64,000 nt of DNA from Eutreptiella sp. 'Long Island Sound 2002' (taxonomy: Eukaryota; Protista; Euglenida): the NCBI GenBank assembly GCA_964036045.1, contig OZ038379.1, forward strand, positions 3,286,001 to 3,350,000. The letters are read 5' to 3'. The notes beneath the pieces were generated by a model. The model was not told where the DNA came from, made no database searches, and saw only the letters and a list, made by a program, of their open reading frames with translations. The first letter of the stretch is position 1; every line of letters starts with the position of its first letter. Made by a program: the position numbers and the translations under genes. This document shows, piece after piece, positions 20,788 to 61,497 of this stretch.

Positions 20788-20884
<97 letters not shown>

Positions 20885-21123: not shown

Positions 21124-21168
<45 letters not shown>

Positions 21169-22077: not shown

Positions 22078-22115
<38 letters not shown>

Positions 22116-22499: not shown

Positions 22500-22503
22500 C
22501 GAC

Positions 22504-22560
<57 letters not shown>

Positions 22561-38700: not shown

Positions 38701-38850
38701 GGCGGTCCCGCGCCAAACCTCCGTCGGTTGAGTGTCAACCGCCGTCGACCAACCGAATCCTGCCACCGATGACCTCCGGTCGTGCAGAACAAACGAAAGG
38801 GAACATCTTGTTCCTCAAGGACAGCCCTGCTTGGCCATGCCCCTTGCACC

Positions 38851-40259: not shown

Positions 40260-40337
40260 GTACCCCACAACATCCCTTCTGCTGGGGAGGCGGTCGGGCA
40301 ATTTCTGCGGTGCACAGCCCGAGCCTCAACCCCTCAG

Positions 40338-40397
40338 GTCCCTGCCCACCGCTTCCGTCCACTCCTCACAGCCCTCCAACACATGGGGGTCCACCAG
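40338..40397 (+). CDS. Candidate next exon of the IP3R-like gene (VPAHRFRPLLTALQHMGVHQ)
   Basis: Acceptor cccctcag|, donor CAG|GTGTAC; 60 nt, phase 0-0, in frame after a 78-nt intron; weak resemblance to IP3R 'AVLLNKLHHAADLE'. Confidence 0.4.
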
Positions 40398-40897
40398 GTG
40401 TACACCTCGCCCCACCCGAAGCATCTTGGAGCCCGGAACGCCTGGAGTGGGGGGGGGGGGGGGTGTAGGTGGAGGGAGGGGGGTAGCTTTTGGCGCCGGG
40501 GAGAAGGGCAGGTTCACCACCGAACTGTGACGGCAGGTACCTCGCTCTTGTGTGGCAGTGTGCACAAAGAGTTGCGGTTGGAAGCGGACCACAACTCAAT
40601 TCAAAAGCTGCATCCAAAAGTGTCCAGATTCATCACAACGGCCAATATCACTTGCAAATGTGGCCCAAACGCCCGGGGGGGGGGGGGGGGGCGGACCACA
40701 ATGAGAACGAGTATGTGGGGGCAGCGGCCACCGTCCTGCAAGACGCCCACGATCAAGAGAACAAAGTCAAGGAGAGAGAGAACAGCCCAAACGAAGGGGG
40801 TATGTCTGTGGGGCTTCTTTCCCTGCCCTTGGCCCTGCCCCCGTCTCCTGTACACAGATTGACGATGCGTGCCCTGCCCGCGGCACTCCCGCCCGAC

Positions 40898-41407
40898 TCA
40901 GGCATCATCCGCCCCCGCAGGGGCCATGGGCTCATCGACACTTGCTGCACCGCCAGAGGCCGCAGGCGGTGGTTGCGCAAGGCCAAGCTCGACAAGGATG
41001 GGCCGGATGCGCGCCTCAAGCGCCGCCCGCGCGCTCGGGGGCGCAAGCCCCTCAAGAAACGCGCGCACGCGCTCGCGCTGGGCGGCCGTGCGAGCGCGCT
41101 CGAACACCTCCGGCGACGTGAAGAGCTCCCTCGGCGTCGGGTTGTGCTCGCACCGCATGACGTGCGGGTGGGCGTCGTTGCCGCAGTCCTGCTGGCACCA
41201 CGCGCAGAAGTGGCAGCCACACCGGCCGCACAGCAGCGCCGTGCAGCCCTCGTAGTCGGCGTACGCCGCGCGGCAGCGCGGGCACCGTTGCGTGAGCAGC
41301 TCCTCCTCCACGTGACGCTGCCAGCGCTCCACGTCCGACCCCAGGGCCAGCGATGCGCTGCTGCTCGGGGCCTCGGCCTCGGCGTCCTCCATCTCTTTCA
41401 CACGGAC
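40898..41407 (-). CDS. RBR-like E3 ubiquitin ligase, last exon: RING2/Rcat domain (LTQRCPRC...DYEGCTALLCGRCGCHFCAWC...DAHPHVMRC)
   Basis: Acceptor acgtctcag|GTCCGT; stop TGA at 40898-40900; Rcat-type Cys pattern including the GC-x-A-x-x-C candidate catalytic cysteine. Confidence 0.85.
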   Translation of the reverse strand, partial: VRVKEMEDAEAEAPSSSASLALGSDVERWQRHVEEELLTQRCPRCRAAYADYEGCTALLCGRCGCHFCAWCQQDCGNDAHPHVMRCEHNPTPRELFTSPEVFERARTAAQRERVRAFLEGLAPPSARAALEARIRPILVELGLAQPPPAASGGAASVDEPMAPAGADDA

Positions 41408-41544
41408 CTGAGACGTCGTAAGCGGGGCGTGAATTTTGGGGGGGCGCAGGGAAGGGGATGGCGGAAAAGCAGTCCCGAACCCGGAGAACAAATGCTGGTG
41501 GTTGGAGGGTAACCGGCGGCAGTTGGGAGGGCAATTCGGGCGGC

Positions 41545-41680
41545 CCGTAGTGCATTTGTTTGGCATTTGTAACCCACAGTAACAGCCCCCAACCGCTTTG
41601 GCGACCTGCTGCAACCGCCTGTCTAACCGCTTCCGGGGCCGCCTCTGAGATCCCTTCCCTTCGAATGCATCCCTGCCCCG
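41545..41680. repeat. Member of a GGCGGTT/AACCGCC-rich dispersed element family (related patches ~3950-4030, 36540-36620, 38690-38770, 39480-39590, 48410-48440, 49305-49360, 55820-55900)
   Basis: ggcatttgtaacc...cccccaaccgctttggc...aaccgcctgtctaaccgcttc...aatgcatccctg and recurring aaccgccgtcggtt motifs. Confidence 0.6.
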
Positions 41681-42059
41681 GGGGGTTCCCGGATCACCCA
41701 TTGTGGGAGCCACTGGTGGGGCGCCGCAGTTGCAGGCATTTTGCCCGCGGTGCTGCTTGGCCATCTGATTGCAGCTGAAATGAGTCCCCGTGGTAGCTGC
41801 TGATCAAACACCATGGCGCCCACAAGCAAAGACAAATACACCGAGAATTATTCAATGCCGTTCAGAAAGCAGACAAGAAAACAAGAGATCCTGATAACCA
41901 AGCACACCTTCCTACACCATCCCCGAGAGGGTATTTGTGGGGGTTGGGGGTTGGGGGGGGTGCATGCAGATCTGCCACGGCGGGGGCATTGGTCAAGGAA
42001 TCGGGGATGGATTGGAGGACCGCGGCACATCGAGTCCGCGGCATCGGTCAGGGCATCAC

Positions 42060-43028
42060 CTTCAGCTTCTCGTACTCCGCCACCTGCACCGCGTCCAGCG
42101 CCGCGTGCACCTCCGCGTCCGGGATCACCACCGCGCAGCCCGGGTCCGGGCACTGCAGGCGGCCCCCGTTCCGCCGCAGCCGCGCCAGGTTGTCGGTCTG
42201 GGAGGCCACGTACATCCCGGCGCACCCCCCGCACACGCAGTGCCCATTGGGGCACAGCACCCCGGCCTGGCACGGCTCCAGGCAGATGAGGCAGGGCTTG
42301 GGGGGCGTGAAGCGGCGCCCCTCCCTCTCCCGCTCCTGCTGCGCCTGCGCCTCTTGGCACCCGCGCACGTGCTCGTCCAGGGCCGCCTGCCGCGCCTCGC
42401 GCCCGCCGCCGCCCGGGAGGGGGCGGCCGCACCGGCCGTGCAGCAGCTGCAGGAGCGTGGGGGGTGGGGCCGCCCCCGGCGCCGCTGCCGCGCCTCCCGC
42501 CTCCGCCTTCACCCGCACCGCCCCCTCGTGCGGGCGGCTGCTGTGGTCGCCACCGGCGTCCCCCGCCGGAGTTGGCGGGGGCAGTGCGGGCTCTCCCGGC
42601 GGCTCCAGCTTCACTCCATCGGCTGCTTTGGGCTGCAACGGCGCGGGGGGCGGTGCCTGCCTCAGCGCCGCGGCCGCGCCTCCGGCCTCCGGCTGCGGGC
42701 CCTCTGTCTTCACTCTCACCGCCCCCTCCGGCGTGTCGCTGCTGCTGCGGCTGCGGCTGTGGCTGTGGCTGACGCCAGCGTCTCCCGCCGCCGCAGTGGG
42801 CGGGTGCATTGCCGACGGCTCCAGTTTCACTCCCGCGGCGGCTTCGGTCTTGTTGGGGCCCGCGGGGCCCTGGGCGGGGGGCCCGACCGCCTCCGGGGCC
42901 CGCAGGGCGGCGTCGTGGAACTCGCGCAGGGCCAGGCAGTCGACGCACGCGTCCTTCAGCACGGCGTCGAAGTCCCGGCGGGACTGCTCCTGCCGGCGTG
43001 TGGCCTCGTACACGGCCTGATCGGGCAT
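42060..43028 (-). CDS. RBR-like E3 ubiquitin ligase, main exon: low-complexity duplicated N-terminus plus C3HC4 RING1 (CLICLEPCQAGVLCPNGHCVCGGC...LQCPDPGC)
   Basis: ATG at 43028 lies 3 nt after an acceptor-like ccgccag|; donor CTGAAG|GTGATG; phase 0 join to 41407 gives ~492 aa. An upstream mini-exon MDPMWQ|GT (43571-43588) is a possible alternative start. Confidence 0.85.
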
Positions 43029-44711
43029 GACCTGGCGGGGCACGGCGGATGGCACTCCGCGGGTGGGACCGGACACGCGGCGCAGTCAGCGCCATCCCAT
43101 CGGCGACTCAGTGCCGGGGGAGGGGGAGAGGGGGGGATATTCCGTGTCGAGGAAACCCTGAGTCTACAACTTCGGGCGCGACAAGACCCGCGCCATTGCG
43201 TACAACCGAACGAACAAAGTATGCGGAGTTCGAAACAGTTGCTGACGAGAAAGAGTGGACGGTTGCTGGTATTCGCTGGTGGACTCTGGACGGCTGCTGT
43301 TATTTCCCGGGGGACTCTCCTGGTGCATCGACCCGCACGCTTGTGCGCACCCCATTGAATGCCCCAGGAGCCCTACAAATGAGGGAAGACCCCATCAGCA
43401 CTTCTGCGACTTCCCTGGGAAACTAATGATCATTAACCGAATCCTCAGGCATGGTACAAGTGAGCAAAGGCAGAGCCTAACGTGCACCCGTGCAAATCCT
43501 TAAAAACACCGAACAAACTCCCCCCCTCCGGTAATATTCGCTCCGTCCACGACCAGAACTCAGTAGGAACCTGCCACATGGGGTCCATGGCTCTGCATCG
43601 GATCGGGTCTGACGTGGCGGACGCTGGTGGCGACTCCAGGTGACGCCAAAGCCGTGGCTGGGCTGCGACCCACAAAGGGGGCGACTTGACGTTCGAAACC
43701 CAACGATCTCGCAGTTCGGCGCGGATGGAAACCGAGGCCCCCGTCAACGTTGCGAAAGCAGACGGACCGGGGGAAACACTGCGGGGGACGGGGGGTGCAA
43801 CGCTGGACCCAACCCCCCTGGGCGTGAGATGGGGGTCTGGGGTGGGCGATGGGGACCGGCTTTGAAACGACCCGCAAGCCTCCGCTCGGCTCTCGTCCCA
43901 GACTTGAGCAGCGCGCTGTGGTCCGCCAGTGGCAGTCCACGGAGCGTGGCCTTCGTGCGCCTCTCGTCGCTCCGTCGGGGGGGGAGGAACGGGGACCGTC
44001 TGGCCACCCACGTCGTGAGGGGGCCCTTGTGGGTTGGCGCCTGCCTCCTTCTCCGCCCCCCCTGTGTGACATTCCGTCTGGTTGTTGCTCCTTTACGGGG
44101 CCCTGGACAGTCACCCGTTCTCCCCTTCGCATGTTGCGTCGGGTGGCTGCTTTCTGTCGGCCGCTGCGGCCGGTGCTCTTGCTGGTGTCGTTTCCGCGTT
44201 CGCGGAGCCCAGTGGTTGGTGTGTTGGGACTGTGCTGAATGTGGCGGGATGTGCCGTTTGCGTGTCAGCGGCGCCCAATAATTGGCGTATTGAGGATGTG
44301 CTGGTTGTTGCCGGGGTCGTTTGACTGTTTTTGTTGTCCACACACCTCTGTCCACAGGCCGTCCATAGCCTGCCTCGCTGTGTTTCTGTGCGGTCCAGGT
44401 GCCCTGTTCCTCCACGCGCTGTCCGGGCCGTCCACCATATGTTCTTTTCCCCCTCACGGTTGGTCTGCCCCTGATGGGCTCCCACTCCTGTTGCGCAAAC
44501 AGCCCATCTGGGCTGCAGGAGACACCCCCCACCTGATGCCGGTTGAGCAGGGGTTGGCGCCTGTCTCCTTCTCCGCCCCCCCCCCCCACCCCCCAACAGC
44601 CGCCTTCTGGTGGGATCTGCTCCGTTGCGCTGGGACAGTGCTGTCGTGTTGCTGCGGACCGTGCTCGCATCTCTCGACGAGTGCCTGCGCGAAAGCACAC
44701 GTCCGAGGGGG

Positions 44712-44935
44712 GGCGGTGAGCACGAGGCCATGGTGTTCGTTCGTTTGCCTTTGGCGGCGCCTATCGGCCTCTCGCCACTGCTCATTCTGACCCTCTGTGG
44801 GTCCGAGCGTGTTCTGGTTGTGTCAACGGAGCCCCTGGATGACTTGTCCTGTTTGACTACTTTGGGGCCGGGGGTCCCAGAGACAAGCTGTTGTCCGTGC
44901 CGTTGACCAGGTGCATCCAGATGCACACGCCCGAG
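44712..44935. repeat. Dispersed ~230-260-bp repeat family (near-identical copy 58819-59030; older inverted pieces ~30130-30235, ~30665-30750, ~31030-31135)
   Basis: Shared cacgaggccatggtgttcgttcgtttgcctttggcggcgcc...gttgaccaggtgcatccagatgcacac, including the hairpin GTGCATC-CA-GATGCAC. Confidence 0.9.
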
Positions 44936-45897
44936 GGGGGGAGGGGGTCCACAACATATCATACCTCAGAACGATCACCACGTCGCGCTGATCATTTGTA
45001 GATGTCAACAATGCGGCAACATCCTTTGCACGAAGCAAACACGGCCTCTCCAAACCACGCCCCCCCCCCCCCCACCGGCGCCGTTGGTGCCCGGCTGTTG
45101 TGGCTCCGCATGGTCGGCGCCCCTGGGGGACCATCTGTCAAAAAAGACGGGGGGACGGGGGTCGGTTCGCAGGGGAGGGGGCGATTCAACTCAGTTCTGG
45201 ACCCCAACCCCCGCGGCATGAGCGGTGGGGGGGGGGGGTCCGGGGGGGGGGGGTTCAAACAGACTTCAGCTTTTTTTGTTGGCATTGTTGAATCCCCCAC
45301 CGCTAAGATGACCCGTTCTAGGCATTTGGAACGTTCGCAAGTGGTGGGGGGGCCATTAGCGAAATGGGGCATTTGGGAACAGCAGAAAGAAATTCAGTGG
45401 CCGTGTAGAACAGTGTACGCCTACATGAGGAGCATCTACCCCCCGCCTTCTGAAGAACAACACGGCACTGCAAATGGCCAGACAGGGCTCGGGACCACAA
45501 CCAATGTGTCCTCGAATACCCCACATCACAGGCGTGGTACGTATAACAGGCATTGCGGCAGACACACAACTGAACCCGCGAAGGCACCCAACGAGCACTG
45601 TACGCCACAGGCCTACCCCCTCATTCGCGTGGGGTTGGGGGTCTGGAAGGGGGGAGGGGGGGTATCAACCGGCCCCCCCCCGCGGGGGGCCGCATACACA
45701 GACCGCCCCTCGCCCCGTGACAGGAATTGTGCCGGACATGGAACCCCTTCGACTGCGGACTCAGAAGTTCCCCGGGGGGCGGGCGCAGGATGGGTGCGTC
45801 GGGGGGAGTGGGGGAAGGGGTGAAGCCCAACTCTCCCCACGGGTGTTGGTTCATGGACCCTCCCCCCCTTCACCCCCCGCCACACGGGTGCGGAGTA

Positions 45898-46294
45898 CCC
45901 CGCCCCCCCCCTTGTATAAGCTACGCCAAAGTCCCAAATTAATACGGTCCCTACGCCTACTGTAGCTTAGACACAGGCGTAGCTTGCGCGCGACACATAG
46001 AACTACCAACACCGGGCACCCACGTTCAAAGAGGATTGCATGGTGAGCTGGTGCAAGAAAGGGGCATATAATGCACAAACATCCCCAAAATCAGAGCTAT
46101 CTGGGTCAAGTGGGCAAACACTCACAACAAATGTGTCCATGACTCTATGTGACTCGCAAATCCGTCACCAAACCCATGTCTTATGTGGCTGCACTACGTT
46201 TGGTACCGAATTCAAATTAGGTCCCAAATTAATACGGTCCCTACGCCTACTGTAGCTTGGACAAGGGCGTAGCTTATACAAGGGGGGGGGGGGG
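45898..46294. mobile_element. Tc1/mariner-type MITE, ~400 bp, just downstream of the helicase stop codon
   Basis: TIR C-run-TTGTATAAGCTACGCC ... GGCGTAGCTTATACAA-G-run; TA at 45896-97 and 46295-96; internal direct repeat gtcccaaattaatacggtccctacgcctactgtagctt. Confidence 0.85.
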
Positions 46295-46308
46295 TAGTTG
46301 GGCATCAC

Positions 46309-46965
46309 TCAGGGGCCAGAGCGCACCTCCCACGTCGGCAGCATCTGCGTCTTGAACGCCCTCTGCCGCGCCAGCCACTGCCCCGTCTCCATCCGCAGCC
46401 ACCCCTTCTCCAGCAGCGCCCGGTCCGCCGCGCTGGCCTCCGCCAGCCGCGACAGCTCCGCGCACTCCTTCCGCAGGTGCGCCAGCGCGCACTCCGCGCG
46501 CGCCAGCTCCTCCGGGGTGTCCCCCAGCGCCGCCACCTGCGCCTCCAGCCGCCGGATCTGGTCGCGGTAGTGTTGGAAGTCGCGCGTCTGCTCCTCCCGC
46601 TCGAGCTCCATCTGCCGCTGCTGCCGCGCCCGGCACTCCGCCACCGCCGGGCCGAGCGTCGCGCGGTAGATGCGCGTCGCGACGCGCCACATCGCGGGCC
46701 GGGCCGTCTCGAGGCCGGCGTGGGTGTCGCGCCGCACGGCGCGCCCGGTCGCCTGCACGACCTCGGGCCAGCCCTTGGGGTGGGGCTCCAGCAGGTGCAC
46801 GTGCTGCACCCGCAGCAGCGTCAGGCCCTGGTTGGCGTCGTGGGAGCCGAGTAGGGCCTGCACGAGGGGGCGGCCGTCGGCGCGCCGCAGCCCGTCGTGG
46901 CGGGTGCCGTCGGCGGTGAGGCGCCCGAAGGCCGCGAGCAGGCGGCGGCGTTGGAACGTGGGGCC
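46309..46965 (-). CDS. SF2 helicase gene, last exon: motifs V-VI (QGLTLLRVQHVHLLEP...QATGRAVRRDTH) plus C-terminal coiled coil
   Basis: Acceptor ccgtccgcag|GGC; stop TGA at 46309-46311; motif wording matches NCLDV D11/D6-like helicases (EG+.L..VRQVHILEP...EQ.IGRA+R..SH). Confidence 0.88.
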   Translation of the reverse strand, partial: GPTFQRRRLLAAFGRLTADGTRHDGLRRADGRPLVQALLGSHDANQGLTLLRVQHVHLLEPHPKGWPEVVQATGRAVRRDTHAGLETARPAMWRVATRIYRATLGPAVAECRARQQRQMELEREEQTRDFQHYRDQIRRLEAQVAALGDTPEELARAECALAHLRKECAELSRLAEASAADRALLEKGWLRMETGQWLARQRAFKTQMLPTWEVRSGP

Positions 46966-48028
46966 CTGCGGACGGGGGTCGGTGGCGGGGGACCGCGAGG
47001 AAGCAGAGGGATGGGCGAACGCGTGGCAACCGACAGGAACGAGCAAAAGTGGCGAAAACAGTCAACAGCAATGGCCCAATGGAGACTGGAGGATGCGTGT
47101 TTTTTGGTAGACGTCGATTGTTTCTCTTCGTTTCGGGCATTGGTGTGACATTCTGTGCGTTCTTGGTCTCCCTCGTCCCGGTTTTTGGTGGATCTTGGTG
47201 GATTTTGGTCCATTTTTGGTGGTTCTTTACGCGTTTTTGTCATTTTTGGGTCCTTTTGGGGTCATTTTTGCCAAACTTTGACGCCTTCCGGCCACTTGTA
47301 CTGGGCTTTGGGGGCTTTTGTCCAGGGGTGCATAAAGTGTTGCGGAGTCATGCCTTTCTTGAAAATGCGGGCCTGATGGTGCCTTCCATTCTCCCCACGT
47401 GCGGCACGTGTGGCGTGTGCGGTATGTGTGGCAAAGGTGCCATCGGCGTGTGTGGCATATGCGGCATGCATGTCAAATCGCGTGCTTTTCAGGCCACCGC
47501 TTGGACATATTTCAAGGTCATGCATGGTTCGGCAGGGAGACGAACACACGCACGACGGGAACCGCAGCAATAGCAGGTCACGGTGAAATGGTCGCCCATG
47601 GGATCGGCGTACGGGAGGGTAGACACGGCAGACAAACAGGAGAATCGCTACTCCCGTCCGCACGCGGTATCCCACGTGGCGCAATGTGCGATGACGCACC
47701 TGGAAGCCCCCCAAGTTGCAAACTTACAAACACACACGCGCATGCACATACACACACACACACACACGTACACATGGTGAAGCAGTTTTTTTTGAAACAA
47801 AAAGTGTTCTTGCGCAGACCCCACATGTTAAATCCCAAAATGTCCTTGGCAATTCTGGCCAAAAGACAAGCAATTTGCATTGTGTAATTTTACATTTGCA
47901 ATTTCAAACTTTCTTGCCTTCAAAACGCCATTTTTCAATCGATCGATCGATTTTTCGGTTTTTCGGTTTTTAGGGCAATAGCAAACAAGCACTGAGAACA
48001 CGCGTGCGCGCACACCAACAAACTGCAC

Positions 48029-48322
48029 CTGCAGCACGACAAAAGTCAGTTGGTCCGGGTGGTCCAGGGCACGAGGCGCAATCAGCCTCAGCCCCGTCTC
48101 AGCCACGGGGTCAGCCCATCGGAAATCGTCAGGGAAGAGCTGCTTGGCGATGGGGTGAGCATCTGCCGCTGTGGCGTGGGTCCGTGCGAGACATTGTGCC
48201 AAGCGGGTGATGGTGCATTGGTTGCTGGAGTACACAAAGTGCTTGGTCTCCAGCGCTTCAGTGTCCGGGGGGCTCAGCAGGAAGTTGGCGAGGGCCACAA
48301 ACTTGGGGGACAGATCAGAGAC
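48029..48322 (-). CDS. SF2 helicase gene exon: start of RecA2 lobe and motif IV region (LSPKFVAL...KHFVYSS...FVVLQ)
   Basis: Acceptor cggaacag|GTC, donor CAG|GTGCAG; 294 nt, phase 0-0; the spliced junction reads FVVLQ|GPTFQRRRLLAAFG. Confidence 0.82.
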
Positions 48323-49447
48323 CTGTTCCGGGGGCGTGCGTGAGTCTGAGGTATGGGAGTCCTTGACAAAAGTACCCCCCAGATTTGTGGTCTTTGCGGA
48401 CCGGCTGCTGATCGACGGCGGTTGGCGGTCAACCGACGGCGGCTCGGTTATTGCGGCGCAACGGACGCCGGTGTGGCAAGCCTTGTGCTTACCTCCCCTG
48501 CAGCACGTTTGCGCGTGGAGGGTCGCTGTAAGTCCTCCGGGAGCGCGGCGTGACTTTTCAGCTACTGTTTCTACGGTTCGCACCTGCTGTCTGGTGGGGT
48601 TGACCACTGAGCTACCGAGTGTACGATAGGCGCTGAATGGTGGGGCCTGCGCAGCCCCTCCGGATTCGAGCGCGACCCATCTCAGGGCTTTCTCCGCGTG
48701 TCACTCTGTGGGGCTGACCGGATACGATTCCAGGACCTCCAGGGGGCTCGAACAACCCCACCCCCCCCCACCCCGCGCGCAAACCATTTTTCCCCCTCCC
48801 AGGGCGTCGCATGTGGGTGGATGGTGAAGAGATTGTATGGGGGTGGTAGGAGAAGACGCGGCATGCAAATGGTGCTGGGGTGTGTCGGCGCTTATGCTAC
48901 AGCCTGCACAGGACCTCAACAGGACAGGGGGGGGGGGCATATCCCTTGATCTCTGTACACCCGATGCCTTCGCCGATCTGAAAATTACCCATGCACTGCC
49001 CTTCTAGCACTCGAGCTGTGCTGCTGGTCCCTCTACAACCCATACCGCCTACATACCACCCCAACGTTACCCGCATGCCAACAAGGTACTCCCATTGTTG
49101 TCCATACTGGACCTGGACCCCCTTCAATACCCCTCCAAGTCCCTTGTGACGGGCCCCTATCGTCTCCTGCAAAGCTGCACGTGTCTGATCATGTCCCCTG
49201 CTCCACAAGTTAGACCCGCGCTTGATGGGGTGGAGGGGCCCCGGGCCCTGTGGGATGACAGTGAGTGCGGCCACGACTGCATCGGGCTGCTTGTAACCGC
49301 CAGAACCTGACCCCCAACCGCATTTTCAACCGACAGCGGCCATTTTGCAACCGCGCTTAGAACCCAACTTCAGCCCCTCGCAAGGGCAGCGCGCTGCCCC
49401 CTACGCCCAGCACAGCGCACCTCCGTCAGCACCGGGGCCGGACTCAC

Positions 49448-50014
49448 GTCCAGCCTGGCACATAGCCCGTTCGCCGACCCGCCCCACAGCACCGTGCCGG
49501 CGGCCTGCATGTGCCTCGCGCTCAGCACCGCCAGCTTCCGCGCCGCCCCCCCCTCATCCAGCCCCAACGGGTCGAACAGCTCCGCCGGGGTCTCCACGTT
49601 GGCGGTTCGGACCCGCGGCAGCCCCAACCGGCTCACCAGCGCCACGTGCGGCAATGCCAGGGGGCAGTCCACGACGCAGTGGCCGGTGTCCTGCGGGAAG
49701 TGGGAGTAGTCGTGGCTGCCCTCCACGAACGAGACGAGGCCGCGTGCGTGCGCCGCAAGCCGGGTCTGCCAGCCTGGCGTCTCCTCCAACAGCGGGTGGT
49801 GCGGGCGCCGCGTGCGCGCGGCGCGCACCAGCTCGAGCTGCAGCAGCACCTCCGCTTTGGACCGGCCGGGAGTGCCAGACAAGAGGAAGGTCTTGCCGTT
49901 GGGGCTGCGTGTCAGGGCTTCCAGGACCGTGCCCCAGAGCGCGTCCCGGTCACAGACACGGTCGTTGAAGAGCTCGTGGGACTCGTCGATGATGACGGCG
50001 GCGTTGCGGAGCAC
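49448..50014 (-). CDS. SF2 helicase gene exon: motif II (VIIDESH) and motif III (LLSGTP)
   Basis: Acceptor cggcacag|GTG, donor GAC|GTGAGT; 567 nt, phase 0-0. Confidence 0.88.
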
Positions 50015-50142
50015 CTGTGCCGAGGTGAGGTGAGGTGAGGTGAGGTGAGGTGAGGTGAGGTGAGGTGAGGTGAGGTGAGGTGAGGTGACATGACGTGACG
50101 TGAGGTGACGTGACATGAGGTGGAGGCGAGGTGAGGTTAGGT
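50015..50142. repeat. (TGAGG)n / minus-strand (CCTCA)n pentamer array abutting a helicase acceptor site
   Basis: Directly visible; a related degenerate patch lies at ~59147-59185. Confidence 0.95.
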
Positions 50143-50181
50143 GAGCCGCCTCTCTTGCCGAAGCAGGAGGGCACAGGCTGC

Positions 50182-50281
50182 ACCTGCTCATGCAGTCTCC
50201 CACGGTGTTGTCCTTCCTAGGGACATACACCATTCTGAGGTCGAACTTGGCCAGGGTCTCGTGCTAACGAGCCCTCCGTCT
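50182..50281 (-). pseudogene. Ty3/Gypsy RNase H C-terminal remnant (RRRAR*HETLAKFDLRMVYVPRKDNTVGDCMSR)
   Basis: Matches the gypsy motif R..RW...L..FDF.+.Y.PG..N.VADALSR, with the Trp codon changed to TAG; no flanking RT or integrase seen. Confidence 0.75.
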
Positions 50282-50664
50282 GTGTTCTCTGCTATGTTAT
50301 TGCTGTCGACAACCAGTGGGGCCCATTCAAATCGAAAACTGCGCTGAGGCCTGCGCACTTATTCCGGCGGGAGTCCCCCTGGTGGTCGTGCGACCGGGGC
50401 GCCAGGGCGAAAAACAGGTCGCAAGGCTCAGCGACACCGCGGTGCCCCGTGCGGGGCAGGCCGCACTGGAGGAGCACCGTGCGGTGACATCCAGCAAGGG
50501 GGGGGGAGGGGAAACAGTGCGCGACACAAGGACTTCCGGGAAGGATATTGGAGCCCACCTCCTGCCTCCTGGCCATGAAGCGACATGGCCCGTTTTCGTC
50601 CCCAGGTCACGTGTGTGACCATGAGCCATTTTTTTTCATTCACTGGGATTGTGCGATCCCCCAG

Positions 50665-51063
50665 CCTGGATACCCCCAACCGTGACGCCGTGCGGCTGTG
50701 GACGGCTCTGGGGCCCGGGCTCTGCCGTGTGGCAGCAACTAGACACCAGGTGTGCGCCTACCCCTGCCTGGATACCTCCAACCGTGACGCCGCGCGGCTA
50801 TGGACGGCTCTGGGGCCCGGGCTCTGCCGTGTGGCAGCAACCAGACACTAGGTGTGCGCCTACCCCTGCCTGGATACCCCCAACCGTGACGCCGCGCGGC
50901 TATGGACGGCTCTGGGGCCCGGGCTCTGCCGTGTGGCAGCAACCAGACACTAGGTGTGCGCCTACCCCTGCCTGGATACCCCCATCCATGACGCCGTGCG
51001 GCTATGGACGGCTCTGGGGCCCAGGCTCTGCCCTGTGGCAGCAACCAGACACCAGGTGTGCGC
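50665..51063. repeat. 102-bp tandem repeat, ~3.9 copies
   Basis: cctggatacc begins at 50665, 50767, 50869 and 50971. Confidence 0.96.
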
Positions 51064-51197
51064 TGTGAGCGTCAAGAATAGTGCAGCGTTGGGCTTTGGT
51101 GGTAGCGAAGCCTAGGGCATTGTGTCTCGCCGTGGACGAGGAGAGGGCTAGGCTGGGTCGTCGGGAACGAGACCACTGCCAGCAGCGATGGCCAGCG

Positions 51198-51990
51198 ACT
51201 TTTGGCAGAACTGAAGGCATTGGGCGTGTGCCCATGCAGAATTTATTACTTTTGGCAGAACTGGGAGCATTGGGCGTGTGCCCATGCAGAATTTATTACT
51301 TTTGGCAGAACTGAAGGCATTGGGCGTGTGCCCATGCAGAATTTATTACTTTTGGCAGAACAGAAGGCATTGGGCGTGTCCCCATGCGGAGTTTATTACT
51401 TTTGGCAGAACTGAAGGCATTGGGCGTGTGCCCATGCAGAATTTATTACTTTTGGCAGAACTGGGGGCATTGGGCGTGTGCCCATGCAGACTTTATTACT
51501 TTTGGCAGAACTAAAGGCATTGGGCGTGTGCCCATGCAGAATTTATTACTTTTGGCAGAACTGGGGGCATTGGGCGTGTGCCCATGCAGACTTTATTACT
51601 TTGGCAGAACTGGGGGCATTGGGCGTGTGCCCATGCAGAATTTATTACTTTTGGCAGAACTGGGGGCATTGGGCGTGTGCCCATGCAGACTTTATTACTT
51701 TGGCAGAACTGGGAGCATTGGGCTTGTGCCCATGCAGACTTTATTACTTTTGGCAGAACTGAAGGCATTGGGCGTGTGCCCATGCAGAATTTATTACTTT
51801 TGGCAGGCCTGAAGGCATTGGGCGTGTGCCCATGCAGAATTTATTACTTTTGGCAGAACTGAAGGCATTGGGCGTGTGCCCATGCGGAGTTTATTACTTT
51901 TGGCAGAACTGGGGGCATTGGGCGTGTGCCCATGCAGAATTTATTACTTTTGGCAGAACTGAAGGCATTGGGCGTGTGCCCATGCAGAAC
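51198..51990. repeat. 50-bp minisatellite, 16 copies (TTTTGGCAGAACTGAAGGCATTGGGCGTGTGCCCATGCAGAATTTATTAC)
   Basis: Period 49-50 bp, head-to-tail with no spacers; variants at the GAAG/GGGA/GGGG and AAT/ACT positions. Confidence 0.97.
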
Positions 51991-53011
51991 TGCCGTGGGG
52001 GGCGACGGGGTTGGGGGGGGGGGGGGACGTGGGGGAGACGAGAGCGACGCGATGGGCGTTGCGCCCGCCGCGGTGTGGCGCCGTCCAGCCCGGCCCGGCC
52101 GGGGCAGCCGTATCCGGTGCGTCCGGTGGAATCGGTTCCGGGCACAGCAGACACCAGACACCAGACACTGCGCACTTATTCCAATGCGCATTGCAACACA
52201 TCTGCACTAACCACCTTAAACAGAAATTACAGTACAAAGCAGCGGACGCACAAATACTGCCATTTTATTATTTCGAGTATCCGAAGACAACTGCGAATGA
52301 CAGTTGTCGACTGGTCATCAATTGATCATTGTCAGTCGGAGGTTGGCAATTAGTCATCGACGGTTGAGTTAATCGCCAGCAGTTGGTTACTTATCGCTGG
52401 CGGCGGTGCATGCCCCACCCACTCAATCATTCCTCTCCTATGCCAAGATGCCTTGTTTTGTCGATACTTGGTGTCTGCATGTTACAACAGTCAGGCACTC
52501 TTGGCTTGGTGTTGTCCTTCATGCACAGAGGTAGAGGTGGGAGGCATGAAGCAAGGGGGCAAGGAAGGGGGGGGGGGCGGGTCCGACACATAACACACAC
52601 ACACACACACTTGTGCAGGAATCAAACGATAAAACCACTGATGTTTATCACGAGCACAGCAAATCGGCTCGCACCCGTAACACGTCATCAGGCCAGTGAG
52701 CAATCAAAACAGCACAAAGCAAAGTAAAAGCATTGAAGCTGCCATGAAGTCATAAGGCTAGGCGCCTCTGCAGGGGTGTAACGGACGAGAGTACAGTGTA
52801 TGCATATCATCAGCAGGTGAGTCACAAGCACTTGAACTGACCCTGTTCCTAACACCCCAGCCAGGGAGGGGAGGGAACGAATCTGGACTACGCAGCAGCC
52901 CTTACATGCCCGGAACAACCACTGTTCATTAAACCTTGCTCTGCGTGCATACCTGGGGGCTGGGGACACACACACACACACACACACCGATGCACCACAC
53001 CATCACAACAC

Positions 53012-53205
53012 CTGTGCCGGCCCACGCTCTGTACAAAACCGCGTGAACTGTCGGAAAGTCATGAAGTTGCGCTTGTACACCGCAGGGCCACGGGGCCGAT
53101 ACCGGAACGCCCTGACGAGCCCCGCGACGTCCGCTTCTGTTGGCGCACGGTCCAGCGCAAACGACGGTGCAAACTGCAGCATTGAACGGGCGCACTGGTC
53201 GAAGC
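53012..53205 (-). CDS. SF2 helicase gene exon between motifs Ia and II (GFDQCARSMLQF...NFMTFRQFTRFCTERGPAQ)
   Basis: Acceptor tgtctcgcag|GC, donor CAG|GTGTTG; 194 nt, phase 1-0, exactly bridging the phase-1 end of 55356 and the phase-0 start of 50014. Confidence 0.78.
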
Positions 53206-53361
53206 CTGCGAGACAGAGCGGGCAATGGGGCTCCAGGGGGTTGCTGCGGTGCCTACACGGCTCCTGGCGCAAACGGCTTTGATTCTCGCTGGTGTGAGTG
53301 GCACTGGTGGAGGTCGAGAGACGGGCCGCGTTCGGACCCTGACCAACCCAACCATTGGAGT

Positions 53362-53430
53362 TGTACAGCTGTGTCTCAATGGTGAATCACCGGAAATCCA
53401 GGGGATCCCGGGTTCGAACCCGGTTACTGA
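53362..53430 (+). mobile_element. Degenerate tRNA-like / SINE head
   Basis: gtctcaatggtgaa (A-box-like)...ggaaatcc...cccgggttcgaacccgg (B-box/T-arm); no convincing acceptor stem. Confidence 0.45.
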
Positions 53431-53499
53431 GCTCATCAAGTCACGCTCCACTACTAGGGTGCAGATCTATCGCTCCCCTGTCCATTGCCACATTGATAC

Positions 53500-54655
53500 C
53501 AACCAAAAAAACTGCCCCGTTTAAATTTTTCCTTGCTGTGAGTTGTGTAATTACTGGGAAAAAAAAAAACAGACCGGTGGAAAAAAAATTTGTCGGCACG
53601 TGCAATTTTTTTTGTGGTAAGTGGTGTAAAAAAAAATTGGAAAGTGAAAAAGAAAAGAAAGGCCACTTTTTGCAATACGTACGCAATATGTACAGTTGCC
53701 GGGTTCATACGGCACCCCGCAGCGACCTTAATAATGCACCGTTGAGTCCACAAAGCACAAAGTACTCTGTGTGGCAAGCATTTGATTGGGACTCAGCCAA
53801 TATAAGGATATGGAAAGGGGTGAGAGTGACATCCACTCAGAGTACCTGCCACCATGAAAAATGCAACTCATGTAAAAAAAAATCGTCAAGTTGTGTCTTT
53901 TTTTTGGCGGTAAAGTTGTGTAATAATAGCATGTTCATACACTCCACCTTTGGTACACCAAATAGGTGGAGGAAAAGATAGTAACACGAAAAGTCTGCAA
54001 ACATGCACCCACTACAAGTAGTTGCAAAATGCACGTTCGTAGATGAGGTCAGTCGTTGTATCGGAGGACTTGGGCTTTGCACCAGGACTAGTGTTCCACT
54101 TACAAGCCTTAGGCAAATCAACTACCAACTGCTTGGTCACCTCATTGATGAAGTGCTAGTCACGCTCCAGCTGGCCAGATGCATCTTTGAGGGAGCTATC
54201 TGGCACCTTGCGCCACTCTCCACCGATGAGGCCCTTCAGACGGGTGTCCTCCTCTTTGGTACCAGTGGCCATGGAAGGTTGCGCCCTAGGTTGTGGGCCT
54301 TCCGGGCTTTGCTTGGAGGAGGAATCCTTGCCTTTGAGCGGGGTGGGGGTGGTCTGAACACTCTCATGAGTCTCAGAAAGTGCACCTTGAACTTGGGTGC
54401 TGGGGGGACACAAGAGGGCAAGGAAGCTCAGTCTGCATTTACCGCAAAAAAAAATTGCACAGCGGCACAATTTTGGTTTACTCGTGTTTACCGCCAAAAA
54501 AAAAATTACACGATGGGACAATTTTTTTGTACTCATGTTTTCTGCACAATGGGACGGTTGTTTTGCACTCGCGTTTACCACAAAAAAAAATTACACGACT
54601 TTACTGCCAAAAAAAAATACACAGTTTTGCATTTTTTTTGTACTCGCATTTACCG
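53500..54655. mobile_element. Possible non-autonomous element with inverted A-tract-rich subterminal repeats and a decayed internal ORF
   Basis: gtgcaatt(T)n-g.ggtaa at ~53600 is the reverse complement of ttaccgc(A)n-ttgcac at ~54440; A/T runs repeat at both ends. Confidence 0.4.
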
Positions 54656-55103
54656 GCCCCTTTCCAGTTGGGTATGGACTAGCCCCTTTCCAATGGATAT
54701 GGACCAGCCCCGTTCTAGTTGGGGATATGGATTGGCCACTTTCTAGTTGGGGATAGGGGCTAGCCCCTTTTCCAGTTGGGGATATGGATGGGCTCCTTTC
54801 CAGTTGGAGATATGGACTGGCCCCTTTCCATTTGGGGATATGTACTGGCCCCTGTCTAGTTGGGGATGTGGACCAACCCCTGTCCGATTGGGGATGTGGA
54901 CCAACCCCTTTCCATTTGGGGATATGGACTGGCCCCTTTCTAGCTAGGGATATGCACTAGCCCCTTTCTAGTTGGGGATATGGACTAGCCCCTTTCCAAT
55001 TGGGGATATGGATTGGCCCAGTTCCAACTAGGGATATGGACTGGCCCCTTTGCAATTGGAGATGTGGACTAGCCCCTTTCCAGTTGGGGATATGCACTGC
55101 CCC
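54652..55103. repeat. ~28-bp minisatellite (ATATGGACTGGCCCCTTTCCAGTTGGGG), about 16 diverged copies
   Basis: Directly visible tandem periodicity. Confidence 0.93.
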
Positions 55104-55355
55104 CAAAAATGAGGTGATGGGCTCTCACACTTCGGTGTGGCTCCTTGAGTTGGGGTGATGGACTCCCAAAGCCTCGTTGTGGCCGGAAATAACTCCCACC
55201 AGCCCCAACGGGGAAATAATCATGGGGCATGGGCACAGTGAAACGTCTCCGTTGGAAATGATTGTGTTGCAGTGTGTCGTGTTGCGGTGCGTTGCAATGT
55301 GTTGTGTTGTGGTGCGTTGCAATGTGTTGCACATGTGTTGCACGTGACAGCAGAC

Positions 55356-55575
55356 CGTTGTGCCGCGTGTTCTGCGGCGTGGATACCACGTAGACGTCCA
55401 GCTCCGAGAAGTACAACAGCTCCAGCAGCAGCGCCACCATCACACTTTTGCCGGAGCCCGGGGTCCACCAGTACAGACAGCCACGCACGTCAGGGGTCGC
55501 CAGCACCTTCTGCGCGTGCTTGTACCCCGCCGCCTGCCACGCTGTCAACACCGGGGGCGCCGCGCGTGCATCCAT
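55356..55575 (-). CDS. SF2 helicase gene exon: Q motif (LTAWQ), Walker A (WWTPGSGKS), motif Ia (VYVVSTP)
   Basis: Acceptor ttctctgcctctcag|ATG, donor AACG|GTCTGC; 220 nt. From this ATG the five helicase exons total 1932 nt (643 aa plus stop). Confidence 0.85.
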
Positions 55576-56982
55576 CTGAGAGGCAGAGAAGTCTGGCGCA
55601 GTCTTGGGTTGGGCTTGGAGTGGAATTTCGCACCAGATGGCTTCGCAGAGCACCTCCCATCCAATTGGCTAAATAGTGCACCAGCAGCCCCCAGTCTGCC
55701 CACAGCCCCTGAACCGGTCTCCTCCCACCCACTCTGACGCAGTCGCGGGCATTCTTTGATAGCGCAAAAAAAAAAAATTTCCGGCGTCCAGTACACTGAG
55801 CCTGGCGGTCTGAGGGGAGTCGACGGCACTCTGAGTATAACCACCGGTTGAGAAGGCAGCGATGGCGGTTGGAGCCACGGCGGTTTGAGGGCAACCTACG
55901 GCGGGTGGGAGGGATGTGGGGCGGAGGGGGGGCCTTGAACATAACAAAGGAAAAACAAGACAAAACCTACCGTGTCCGTGCAGGCCAGGCTGCTGTCTTG
56001 ATCTTGGCATGTTACCGGGAATCCATGAAGCCCTGTCCGATTAGGGCACGCGCGCGGTGCAAATACTGGGGGCTCTTGTGGTGGTGGCCATCCTTCCGGG
56101 TGGGGGGGTGTGGGGGCGTGGGGGCCACAGTCCGGGGCATGAGGGCATCGGCACAGCAGGGCAGTCCCTGTTGTGTGTGCCACAAATTCGATTTGCACAC
56201 GTTTCGGGGTCCATCTTCCAGCAAAACTGGGGTCGGTCCGTCCGGACGGTCAGGCCCGTTTGGCACTGCGGCGCGGCAAATAAAAGCCCCCCAAACCAAG
56301 ACGCCACAGGCCCACGGCGACGTCCTCTATTACTGTGGCGTGGTCTGAAACGGGGCGGTCTTTTAGGGGAAGAAATGGGCTCCTTAGCGACCGCCCTGGC
56401 TCGGGCTCCGACATGCCTCAAGGCCTGGCAGCTCCGGAGCAGCGCATTGCGAACCCCCATACCGGGGGGGGGGGGGGGGCTGCAGCGGGAATTTTCGCTG
56501 TGGGATATTTGGCGCTTGGAATTTGTGCGAAATTTCGGACACAATTTTCAGGCCGCTGTGCGAAATAAACCCGCTTCGAAATTTAGCGAAATTTCTTGCA
56601 ACGCATGGTTTTCCGTGCCTTCTCCCACTGTACATGCTAATCACGCTTCCAAGGGCTCCCGCTTTGCATTGTCCACATTGGAAATAGTAGCCCCACAGCC
56701 ACAAACAACCATCATCCAACAATGAGGTCTTGTATGCATGCAGCAGGGGGGGAAACAGCAACCAAAAATAATACATCACTTCATCTTGACCCAGCCACAT
56801 GCAACCCTGAGACCCCCCTGTGTATAACAGCGGGGGCTCCTGGGCCAATAACGCACCAACCAAAGCAAACCCCCACCCACCCAGACCCCCCCCTCTTGCG
56901 AAATAGCTTGATTTCTGAAGCCTGCCCATGGGGGTCCAAATGAACCCCCTGGCCAGCCACAGCTGACCGACCCACCCTCCCA

Positions 56983-57262
56983 CATCAGAAAAATTTTACT
57001 CGTGACGATCAACGGCAGGAGGCTTCAAAAATGGTATTTGACAGCCGGTTACAAGAAATGCGTAGTGAAGTATGGGTAAAACAGTTGCCCATCTGTCATT
57101 TGCGTCACCGGGGCAAAAAGTTGGCCACTCAAGGCTGTACCAATCCAATGGGGCGGCCTGGAAAATTGACCCACGACAGAACCACGGCGTTGAAGAGCTA
57201 TTTTGATGAGGTACGCGCTGAAGGTGCATGTGTAGATCGTGAGTGTATTGCAATTTGGCCAC
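56983..57262 (+). pseudogene. Possible pogo/Tigger (Tc5, CENP-B-type HTH) transposase N-terminal remnant
   Basis: KNFTRDDQRQEA...GRPGKLTHDRTTALKSYFDEVRAEGACVDRECIA resembles the GR...L...E..L..W+...R..G..V....I pattern; no DDE domain follows. Confidence 0.45.
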
Positions 57263-57284
57263 GGATTTGGTGGCAACCCTCCCG

Positions 57285-57470
57285 GAAGTCACAACAACCC
57301 ACCAGGAAGGAACAGCAACCCTCCCAGAATTAACAGCAAGCCACTGGGAAGGGACAACAATCCCCCAGGCCTCACCAGCAACCCATCGGGAAGGAACAAC
57401 AACCCTCTAGGACTCAACAACAAAGCATCAGCAAACAACAGAAACCACCAGAAATTAACAGCAACCACCA
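57285..57470. repeat. Degenerate 21-bp tandem repeat (reads NNPPGRN-like on +)
   Basis: caacaaccc...ggaagg units recur about every 21 nt. Confidence 0.7.
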
Positions 57471-58237
57471 GCAAAGGCAGGCTCACAGCATGTGGGTGCG
57501 AAATTTCCCACTGCAAATTCAGGGCTGCATGCCAAATAAAGCCGCTTTGAAATATCCCACGGGGAAAAATCGAGGTGATTCCCGCCATGAGAGCCCCCCC
57601 TTGTACCACTGCCCTTCCCGCCATGAGAGCCCCCCCCCCCCCCCCCTGTACCACTGCCCTTCCCGCAGACCCGCATCTGCAGCGGCCGCGGTCTACCCTG
57701 CTGTGGCCGTGGCATGAGAAAAAAAAAGGCTGTCGTAAACCCCTTTCCCGTTTGGGCTGCTCTTCACGCGGCAGGTGCACGGTGCAACAACGGCGGCTTG
57801 ATATACCACCTCTTGTCGTCAACTGCATCTCGAGGCATGGCCTTGGGTTTGGGTTTGGGGCTGGCTGAGCGAAGCACGAGCGCACTCGCGCACATGCGGT
57901 GCGGGAAGCGCCTCGAATGGCGTTGGGTGTGCCAGACATCACGGTGCCATTGCGAGATCCTTGGCGACTCCCGTTCTGTATCATCGGAGGCTATTGGCAC
58001 ACATGCACCACTTCTGTGCACTACACGGGACACTGCAGGGGCGGTGACAGGGGGCCCTAAATGTAGCCCAAGTGTGCAGGCGACACAAAAACCCCATTCA
58101 CGGCCACAGAGCCATGCCACAATGGGAAATGCACCCACCCTCTGTTCTGGCAGGCCCAAAGAGCAACAAAAAACCGGCTGAGATCCGTCAAAACCCGCCC
58201 GGATTGCCCTGACGCAACGCATGGACGGGCAGCGCAC

Positions 58238-58631
58238 CGAGGCCTTGCACTGCGGGGCCATCTTGTACGACCCCAGTTCACTCGTCCAGTCGTGCCCCGG
58301 GGCCGCTGCGGCGGAGCCGCGCATGAACGCGCGCAAGAACGCCTGGTAGCCCTCCGCCTGCGGGTGGGGCCAGTCGTCCGGCAGAGGGCGTGGCTGGCGC
58401 CTGCGAGACCCAGGGGCACGGCACGTGTAGCGGTACTGCACCGTCGCGGGCAAATATCCGCAGGGCCCATCCCCCTCGCCCTCTGGGTCTGCCTCCTCGT
58501 CCCCGGCAGCCGGGTCCAAATCCATTCCGTCTGCCTCTTCGTCGGTGTCGGGGTCGTCCGGGGGTTCCGGCTCTGAGTCCGATCCGGACTCTTCGTCAAA
58601 AAGGGACTGCACCACGTCCTCCGTCTTCACC
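58238..58631 (-). CDS. Probable upstream exon of the helicase gene: acidic tract then FLRAFMRG...SYKMAPQCKAS
   Basis: Acceptor ttatctcag|G, donor TCG|GTGCGC; 394 nt, phase 2-0, in frame with 55575; GC3-rich. Confidence 0.65.
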
Positions 58632-60567
58632 CTGAGATAACGGTGAGCTGATGCCAGGGAAGTAGGAGGTTGGGTGCGGGGGGAGGTCTGGGACCCAAAG
58701 GTTTGTGCACCAAAAAAAATAAACAAAAAAAAACAAAAATGGCCCGATCAGATTTTACCCGCTGTAAATTTCGTGTTTCCCCCCGTGGTCACTTTGGTCT
58801 GGCTGGGGGGGGGGGGGGGCACGAGGCCATGGTGTTCGTTCGTTTGCCTTTGGCGGCGCCCATTGGCCTCTCGCCACTGCACACGCCGACCCTCTGTGGG
58901 TCCGAACGTGTTTTGGTTGTGTCAGCGGAGCCACTGGATGACTTGTCCTGTTTGACTACTTTGGGGTCGGCTGTCCCGGAGACGGGCTGTTGCCCGCGCC
59001 GTTGACCAGGTGCATCCAGATGCACACTCCGAGTCCATGCTGGGTTTGCCGACTCCAGCACTCTGGCGGGGGGGGAGGGGGGGGTCCAGGAAGAGGGGTA
59101 GCCCCGTCCTCCTACGGTGTGCGGCCCTTCTAATACTTCCCTGGGTGAGGTGGTGTGATGTGACGTGACGTGAGGCGACGTGAGGCCCAGGATGCGAGCG
59201 TAGTGTTGCCTCCTACGCCCAGCTCAGCCGGGGCTCGAACCAGGTCCCTCTGGTTCCGGCCACGTGCCTTAATAGCTGAGCCACGTGACCTCCTTCCCCT
59301 GAGATGACAGGCCGTGTATTGATGCAACCAATGCTCAATCGGGGGGGATGGGGGGGGGGGGGTGGCACAAGGCCTCGGTATTAGATGTGGGGGGGGGGGC
59401 TGGCACAAGGCCTCGGTATTAGATGTCGGGGGGGGGGGCTTTCCACTGCGGGTTGAGGGTTAGAGACCCCTGACCGGAACGCCCCCTGAAAACAGGCTCC
59501 ATAGGTCGAGCCCCAAATCCAAATCCAAGGCCGCCATGGACGTCACCCGGACCCAAAAAGGGAAAGACTGAAAGTGGTATTTTCGAATTAGCACGAGACG
59601 TGCCAATGGCTCAGGAAAGCCCTCGTCCAACGGGTGTTCAATGAAACAGATTTCTCCGGCCATTCTTAGACGGTTTCCTCGCCGCGGTCAGATTTCCTAG
59701 TGCTGATCAATTGGCCCCTGGCCCTCCTACTACTCGGCCCCACTGTTTTGCAACAACGAAAACCAAAGCACCCAGTTTACCCAGTGTACGAGGATGCAAT
59801 GGGTAACTCGGGTCCCGCATATCAACTGCCAGACAAAATGTCGTATCAGGGGCTTAGAGCCCCCAAAAAAATTGGCTTCAGGTCCCGATGCACCTCTGGA
59901 TATGCTACCTTCGGCCTCTCCTGTTGTCCCCCATCATCGTTGGTGCATACAAGCGGCCTCTCACACTGACTCGTGTGTCACCAGACGCTGTTGTTGATCC
60001 CTCTTCGTGCCTCTTGGGTGCGCTGCTCGGTCCACATTCACATTGCCGGCACCTGATCACCTCCACTCCTTCTATTGCACGACACCGACGTCTTTGAAGC
60101 ACGGCGGCCCCCGGCCAGGAACACTGCAACAAGAGGCCTCAGCACGGGCACACAAGCGTTCATGGCATCCCAAATATCCCCAAACAACAGCTGCGCTTGT
60201 TTACAACAGAATTCAGACTGCAAAGACTTGCACCAGAGGCCTGAGAGAAGCCCGTAACGCAGCCTGTGCTTGGACAAAACTCCTGTGTAGAGGAATCCAA
60301 CGAAAAGAAAAAGACAACAGCCCAGGCACTGTTTGGCACGGCGCCACCCTTCATGTCATTTCTCGGGCCTCAGGCCGGTGCCCTGGTCTCTCGGGCTCTG
60401 GCCGCTCTCCTGCAGGTCCGGTAACGTGGGTATCCCGGGGGGCAGCGCGGCCCCCATGTCTGGTGGCCTACTGGAAGCCACCCCCCCCTCCCCCGGGGCC
60501 CAGATGGTGGGCGAGGTATTCGCCGGGTCTGAACACAGGCTCATCCAATCTAGCACCCGCCGCTCAC

Positions 60568-60881
60568 CCCACTTCCCCAGGCGGACCGGCCCGCTGCCCC
60601 TGCAGGGGGGGGAGAGGTGGGCGTTCGCATGCCCCGGTCCGGGCCTCCGAGGGCCCCTGGCGATCCCACTTCCCCGCAGCCGTGGACGCAGGAGAGGGGC
60701 TGGGGCTGGGTCCGGGGCGGGTACCAGGAACGCCCCCGGGGGCCGAGCGGGGCGTGGCCCTGCGCCGCCCTGGGTCGCGTGCCGGAGAGGTCCGTCGAGG
60801 GCCTGGGGGGTGCATCTCACATGCCATGGGCGGCCGATATGCAGAGTCGTCGCGGACGCCATCGTGCTCCCCCGGGGCGTC
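60568..60881 (-). CDS. Probable upstream exon of the helicase gene: Pro/Arg/Gly-rich disordered linker
   Basis: Acceptor ggctcacag|GAC, donor GG|GTGAGC; 314 nt, phase 0-2, matching the phase-2 start of 58631 (junction reads EVG-VKTED). Confidence 0.55.
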
Positions 60882-61119
60882 CTGTGAGCCTTAAGATCGG
60901 CCACCACATCCAAACCCACTTCCCCACTCCCTCATCTGCCCTCCCCCACCCCACCCCACCCCTTCAGACCAGCCACGTAGACATCCCCCCCGCCCCACTG
61001 CCCATCCCTCCCTCCTTCAATCCCCTCCTTTACTGGAAGGGGGCACACCAGCCACAAGCAGGTCCCATGTCCTCGTTCTTCGGTCCAGGGGGCAGGGGGC
61101 CGGTGTGCCCACTCGGCAC

Positions 61120-61497
61120 CGGAGGCGGCGGCGAATCCTGCAGCTGTGGGCTGCCAGTGGACAGGGGCGTGGGCGCACGCTCCGCCTCCGGCTTGACCAG
61201 CCTTCGCAGCCCAGCCGAGGCTGGCCCAGACGCCCGTTCCAGGTCCTCCGGGGGCTGCAGCGCACAGAGGGCGTAGCGTATGGGGCGCTTGGAGAGCTGC
61301 ACAAAGGTCTGGCGATGGCCGTCGAGCATGCGCTTCAGGAGCTCGCGGGCCCCATCCCGATTCACAAAGACTTGCTGGTACAGCGGCTCCCCTAAAGCAG
61401 CCTCCACGAGCTCGTCCAGATCCGCGCCCTGCGGCTTTCCAGCCAATGCCACAAGCGCAAATTCCTTCAGTGACCCATGCGTTGACGCCGCCTGTTC
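61120..61497 (-). CDS. Probable upstream exon of the helicase gene: winged-helix-like domain (LKEFALVALAGKPQGADLDELVEAA...ARELLKRML...TFVQLSKRPIRYAL)
   Basis: Acceptor gtttgcag|GAA; three-helix plus beta-hairpin pattern; donor uncertain (CCG|GTGCCG is the only phase-0 GT). The start codon is not located. Confidence 0.55.

Follow-up and report, generated by a model that had tools for sequence, protein, structure and literature searches.

The D6/D11-type helicases of poxviruses and other Nucleocytoviricota act as viral transcription factors according to two reports (PMC10965686, PMC3493329), and the second regards D6/D11-like helicases as viral. RBR ubiquitin ligases are defined as RING1-BRcat-Rcat proteins in a 2014 review, which calls the role of the middle domain (IBR or BRcat) unresolved (PMC3940038). 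Here we describe a locus in which features of both families very probably meet on one chain. The window is a stretch of 64,000 nucleotides (nt) from the euglenid Eutreptiella sp. 'Long Island Sound 2002' (assembly GCA_964036045.1, contig OZ038379.1, positions 3,286,001 to 3,350,000). The original prediction placed in it two minus-strand genes about 3.3 kb apart, a helicase and an RBR ligase, as possible cargo of a large mobile or endogenous viral element. The coding pieces and the gap are real, but the supposed pair is very probably a single spliced host gene, the gap (46326-43032) being a phase-0 GT-AG intron. We further consider it reasonably probable that this gene joins a giant-virus-type superfamily 2 (SF2) helicase to an IBR-less RING1-Rcat module, i.e. 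that its product is a predicted ATP-driven DNA translocase with its own ubiquitin ligase.

The gene model has nine exons on the minus strand and eight GT-AG introns, each 652-3,295 nt long. Joined, the exons form a frame of 1,450 residues with a single stop and a G+C content at third codon positions (GC3) of 0.86. They are given below together with intron 7 and with the matches to P0006, a metagenomic protein of 1,291 residues encoded by an unspliced single open reading frame (ORF).

Exon 1, 61611-61049, minus strand: residues 1-188; start at ATG 61611 or at an acceptor at 61497; carries VKPE; joined in frame to exon 2 by GT-AG
Exon 2, 58631-58238, minus strand: residues 188-319; acidic tract and family motif before the helicase; matched by P0006 in tblastn (E 1e-5) and in the alignment
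Exon 3, 55575-55356, minus strand: residues 320-392; Walker A WWTPGSGKS; 70% to P0006
Exon 4, 53205-53012, minus strand: residues 393-457; helicase lobe 1; P0006 match at E 1e-11
Exon 5, 50014-49448, minus strand: residues 458-646; Walker B DESH, motif III SGT
Exon 6, 48322-48029, minus strand: residues 647-744; motif IV KHFVYS; P0006 match at E 9e-10
Exon 7, 46965-46327, minus strand: residues 745-957; motif VI QATGRAVR, coiled coil
Intron 7, 46326-43032, minus strand: 3,295 nt, phase 0, GAG|GTGCGC...CCGCCAG|GTC; the former intergenic gap
Exon 8, 43031-42060, minus strand: residues 958-1281; helicase tail motif (958-997), Ala/Pro/Gly linker with four VKxE motifs, RING1 C1204-C1256
Exon 9, 41407-40898, minus strand: residues 1282-1450; Rcat from C1323, C1336 (codon 41243-41245), helical tail, stop

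Of the nine exons the first is the least secure; BLAST alignments to relatives start only at residues 168-192. A short peptide in intron 4 (50180-50263, minus strand) resembles by eye the RNase H end of long terminal repeat retrotransposons.

The joint between exons 7 and 8 is carried by two lines of evidence. Firstly, exon 7 as a query retrieved three proteins, P0006 among them, and P0006 is colinear with exons 2-9 in order: its residues 729-936 match exon 7, residues 923-976 the start of exon 8 (E 2e-5) and residues 1163-1284 exon 9, the identity to the window protein being 42% across 920 columns. Since P0006 runs through the joint without a break, it points to a single gene. Secondly, exon 8 opens with 40 residues (DQAVY...KDACVDCLALREFH) that form the tail motif of the helicase itself. 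The 15 best-scoring IMG/VR helicase ORFs among those listed terminate in this motif, which also follows motif VI in 91 of the 108 other viral D6/D11-type ORFs; the supposed RBR gene thus opens with the motif that closes the nearest viral helicases, and this again argues for one gene. The splice sites of intron 7 resemble those of the other seven introns, and the intron contains high-copy host repeats, one of them in common with intron 1.

Two separate genes within a large mobile or endogenous viral element, as first proposed, appear extremely unlikely to us. Read on into intron 7, the frame meets a stop after five codons, an ATG comes after the acceptor, one giant-virus bin holds both genes (on different contigs), and the flanks were seen only within the 64-kb window, all of which would suit two genes; however, the terminal motif of the helicase sits in exon 8, P0006 is continuous, and neither ends nor genes of an element were found in the window. 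Pfam scans of 260 window ORFs (124 plus-strand ORFs of at least 75 residues from 36 kb on and 136 others of at least 110 residues, the arrays at 18.6-23.5 kb being excluded) gave no match to a capsid protein, polymerase, packaging ATPase, integrase or transposase, nor to a further IP3R exon, with a sensitivity that is limited because the known IP3R-like exon scores just E 0.023. Between 30 and 64 kb no terminal repeat or target-site duplication encloses the gene among the repeats listed (20 of the 21 direct families, 25 of the 71 inverted pairs). The reported lack of terminal repeats, integrase, polymerase and capsid in the window is therefore borne out. The idea of mobile or viral cargo is not supported, the single gene having eight introns filled with host repeats. 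Contig depth, which is a hint only, is at background for the exons and in the thousands for the intron repeats. Of the earlier interpretation, the "domesticated module" is the part that remains. Multi-kilobase introns can split genes like this one into false pairs.

Both supposed genes had been described with low-complexity N-termini carrying VKxE motifs. Six such motifs are present in the protein (none of 2000 shuffles attains six), four of them within an internally duplicated linker, and they match the SUMO consensus. The "N-terminus" of the supposed ligase, on the other hand, is that internal linker, preceded by the C-terminal motif of the helicase.

Judged from its sequence, the helicase half is a poxvirus D6/D11-like SF2 helicase, and here the first assignment is supported by the Atlas neighbours, the NPH-I match, the viral folds and the tail motif. 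Its motifs are intact (GSGKS, DESH, SGT, KHFVYS and QATGRAVR), the C-terminal VDC tail is present and the closest relatives are viral D6/D11-type helicases. The Atlas clusters nearest to P0006 are 93-100% viral, and vaccinia NPH-I is the sole PDB sequence match at E 0.01 or better (E 0.01). The top viral fold matches of a P0006 structure model (predicted local distance difference test score, pLDDT, 54) are Q706L of African swine fever virus (ASFV) and D6-like helicases; among solved structures Snf2-type ATPases and remodellers lead, and NPH-I, RIG-I and MDA5 are also listed. For the first structure model, whose underlying alignment misplaces exons 8 and 9, the C-terminal portion was disregarded.

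As to the RBR ligase, RING1 and Rcat were correctly recognized but the IBR is absent. All eight zinc ligands of RING1 are in place (C1204, C1207, C1217, H1221, C1224, C1227, C1251, C1256); positions 1-76 of the module profile match ARIH1 RING1 (E 1e-5) and positions 111-175 match CUL9/ARIH2 Rcat (E 2e-6 to 1e-5). Between RING1 and Rcat, from C1256 to C1323, there are 66 cysteine-free residues and no IBR/BRcat, which is likewise absent from P0006 and from the five viral proteins described below; without an IBR the ligase is therefore by definition not a complete RBR member. C1336 aligns with the CUL9 Rcat cysteine (EGC), and a cysteine at this position is kept in the window protein and P0006, neither of which was selected for it. 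Its constancy in five viral modules is no evidence, as the search pattern demanded a cysteine. We consider it likely that the module works like an RBR ligase. A structure model of a viral module copy (pLDDT 64, Rcat below 50) gave weak fold matches with RBR ligases at the top (best E 0.045). A word-index protein search with exon 9 had no match, and the nearest Atlas clusters of the module consist of eukaryotic proteins without names; a few have records, and these are mostly from haptophytes.

An alternative, which we regard as unlikely, is that the gene is fused as described but its C-terminal zinc fingers bind ubiquitin, an E2 or partners without forming a thioester, any ligase activity being of the plain RING type as in Rad5/SHPRH. 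The missing IBR, the change from histidine to alanine near C1336, the PARP-type relatives that have a RING-like finger and no Rcat, and the common fold of BRcat and Rcat (PMC3940038) would agree with it; the retention of the extra cysteine in both unselected proteins, and best sequence matches of the Rcat part to the Rcat domains of CUL9, parkin and ARIH2, speak against it.

The viral flavour noted at first is real in that both halves have giant-virus relatives, but the ligase occurs there as separate IBR-less genes, never fused in the samples. In all five viral loci that matched an Rcat pattern, each from a giant-virus bin, the RING-Rcat module is a gene by itself:

L051, 2503-3996: stand-alone IBR-less RING1-Rcat gene
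L052, 2359-3474: stand-alone IBR-less RING1-Rcat gene
L053, 90-878: stand-alone IBR-less RING1-Rcat gene
L054, 2182-3831: stand-alone IBR-less RING1-Rcat gene
L055, 2587-3930: stand-alone IBR-less RING1-Rcat gene

These five genes go nearly undetected by Pfam. None of 34 viral helicases is fused to Rcat or PARP, and the module is also absent from the loci of the 108 viral D6/D11-type ORFs. Of three giant-virus bins carrying the module, one also contains a D6/D11-like gene, on a different contig.

Relatives of the fused gene are mostly metagenomic, and several are broken by intron-like inserts in eukaryote-like contigs. Loci matching the motif WWTPGSGKS numbered 30 in metagenomes, of which 11 are relatives, and 20 in prokaryotes, of which none is; no viral contig matched. 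Peptide-pattern scans of viral contigs for the family were empty, as was the first metagenome scan. A full-library search returned 35 proteins at E 1e-30. Four of the listed matches (P0030, P0032, P0039 and P0126) were rejected as paralogues, being the window's own ORFs. None of 20 relatives looked up has an informative name. Neither a helicase-RING1-Rcat fusion nor IBR-less RING1-Rcat proteins are described in the literature searched, which was mostly non-subscription and largely at abstract level, and the gene and its relatives apparently form an undescribed family.

Some relatives end differently. A PARP domain lies downstream of the helicase in L023 (Pfam E 6e-16) and L028 (6e-23), and more weakly in L003 and L019, while P0029 and P0123 hold motif VI, the tail, a RING-like finger and a full PARP domain within one ORF. 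The RING-like finger is kept in the PARP-type relatives, and Rcat is not found. The branch comprises:

L023, 1651-3579: helicase-RING-PARP locus
L028, 1118-2344: helicase-RING-PARP locus
P0029: helicase-RING-PARP protein
P0123: helicase-RING-PARP protein

By eye, the H-Y-E residues of these PARP domains are apparently kept. Upstream of the helicase, related loci carry FHA, WWE, UBA/UIM, WW, CUE and RRM domains in the same ORF or in separate ORFs, the joining of the latter to the helicase being unproven. P0034, a helicase of 921 residues and sister to the family (support 87), has the pre-helicase motif and ends soon after the tail. As sole queries, P0034 and P0052 found no viral locus.

Our three trees were built from thinned sets of rows (29 of the 67 viral cores, 45 of the 69 other hits and 16 of the 77 loci). 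In them the family groups as a single clade, with a support of 99-100, between two IMG/VR helicase groups, and the window protein stands next to P0006 (support 84-93). For the sister group, full-length relatives of about 40% identity occur in viral contigs. It is likely, from the tree, that the helicase was acquired from a giant virus long ago and then domesticated.

It seems very unlikely that the gene is a functionless remnant of an endogenous giant virus, in decay and invaded by introns. Giant-virus relatives exist for both halves, the RNA runs gave no evidence of expression, and 9 of the 17 changes listed for other haplotypes in exons 8-9 alter the protein (8 are synonymous); against this, the 1,450-codon frame is unbroken with its high GC3, the catalytic motifs are all intact, no further viral gene occurs among the 260 ORFs, and intron-bearing members of the family occur in further eukaryote-like contigs. 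In the other haplotypes the frame of exons 8-9 is intact; there is a single 9-nt deletion, and none of the listed changes affects a zinc ligand. Of the runs labelled as RNA, X1 and X2 held short unspliced pieces, some intronic; X7 behaves like low-depth DNA, and the same-species run X8 had no match to the gene.

If the host gene is a translocase with a ligase, its helicase half would move along DNA at the expense of ATP. By analogy with RBR enzymes, RING1 would recruit E2-ubiquitin, the ubiquitin would be relayed to C1336, and C1336 would hand it to proteins near the bound DNA. The relatives suggest an ancestral helicase-tail-RING unit with an exchangeable end, Rcat in the window protein and P0006 or PARP in others, and a family role in genome surveillance may be proposed. 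Repair or chromatin work and antiviral sensing are not separable here.

Several observations count against the reading we prefer. No transcript in the RNA runs spans any splice joint. Among 1,354 window segments, a profile of viral tails alone ranks exon 8 at the top, though at no better than E 3.9. The VKxE motifs are missing from three relatives, and the RING-Rcat module from all 149 further matches, P0006 being the only other helicase-RING-Rcat protein found. Alanine replaces the histidine at +2 from C1336, the fold search of the module had no match at E 0.001, and the structure models are poor (pLDDT 54 and 64, the Rcat part below 50). RIG-I and MDA5 in the fold list make an RNA substrate possible beside DNA. 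The tree is unrooted (midpoint only) and its rows differ in composition; transfer from virus to host is therefore likely, not shown.

The IP3R-like gene said to face the pair is seen as one weak plus-strand exon; a second exon was not found in the window, and nesting of the gene in an IP3R intron is not upheld, the lone exon lying inside a local 367-nt duplication. The features outside the fused gene are:

40062-40259, plus strand: IP3R-like (or SH3-like) lone exon; Pfam E 0.023, PDB E 0.15
38851-39216, strand not specified: 98% copy of 40563-40928, which comprises the final 31 coding bases of the gene plus its 3' flank

The exon aligns weakly with IP3R residues 12-71. The region 38806-40928 is rearranged: the exon is enclosed by a 367-nt direct repeat (98%) that duplicates the 3' end of the gene, together with a 46-nt repeat, and one contig departs from the window after 40317; because of these flanking copies and this departure, the exon may be a displaced copy. 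Contig depths hint that the rearrangement is on one haplotype. Elsewhere, the minus-strand ORFs 3037-3894 and 15761-16528 contain closely similar copies of one domain without a Pfam match, probably exons of a repeat-domain gene. Tandem arrays lie at 9753-12326, 18694-23410, 50659-51989 and 54656-55103 (8-mer, (AAC)n, 102-mer x4, 50-mer x16, 28-mer x16).

It is instructive to compare the fused gene with known systems. By features, sequence and viral folds the nearest are poxvirus D11 (NPH-I) and D6 and ASFV Q706L, which have SF2 motifs I-VI and the VDC tail in common with it. These are viral, whereas the fused gene belongs to the host, has nine exons, adds a coiled coil, RING1 and Rcat, and lies in a clade of its own. 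If true, a eukaryotic clade that fuses a D6/D11-like helicase to swappable ubiquitin or ADP-ribose effectors would be a case of domestication. With the RBR E3 ligases (parkin, ARIH1/2, CUL9, HOIL-1) the protein shares an RBR-type RING1, a helical linker and an Rcat with a cysteine at the catalytic position; it differs from them in lacking the IBR/BRcat and the +2 histidine and in being joined to a helicase. IBR-less RING1-Rcat proteins, in this protist and in the five giant-virus loci, make the need for the IBR in ubiquitin transfer testable.

Rad5, HLTF and SHPRH also combine a DNA translocase and an E3 on one chain, with the RING inside a Snf2 ATPase and no Rcat. Snf2-type ATPases top the PDB fold list of the helicase model. 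In the fused protein the ATPase is of viral type and the ligase is C-terminal. Animal ZNFX1, RNF213 and PARP9-DTX3L tie a nucleic-acid- or pathogen-sensing motor to ubiquitin or ADP-ribose transfer. We speculate, as a rather doubtful possibility, that protists made a giant-virus transcription helicase into an antiviral sensor of viral DNA with interchangeable outputs (IBR-less ligase or PARP), in parallel to ZNFX1, RNF213 and PARP of animals, and that giant viruses hold the same minimal ligase on their side. A eukaryotic helicase-effector clade of this kind would be a candidate for the poorly known defence of protists against giant viruses. The likeness to the animal proteins is in logic only, since their motors and ligases belong to other families and no homology is claimed.

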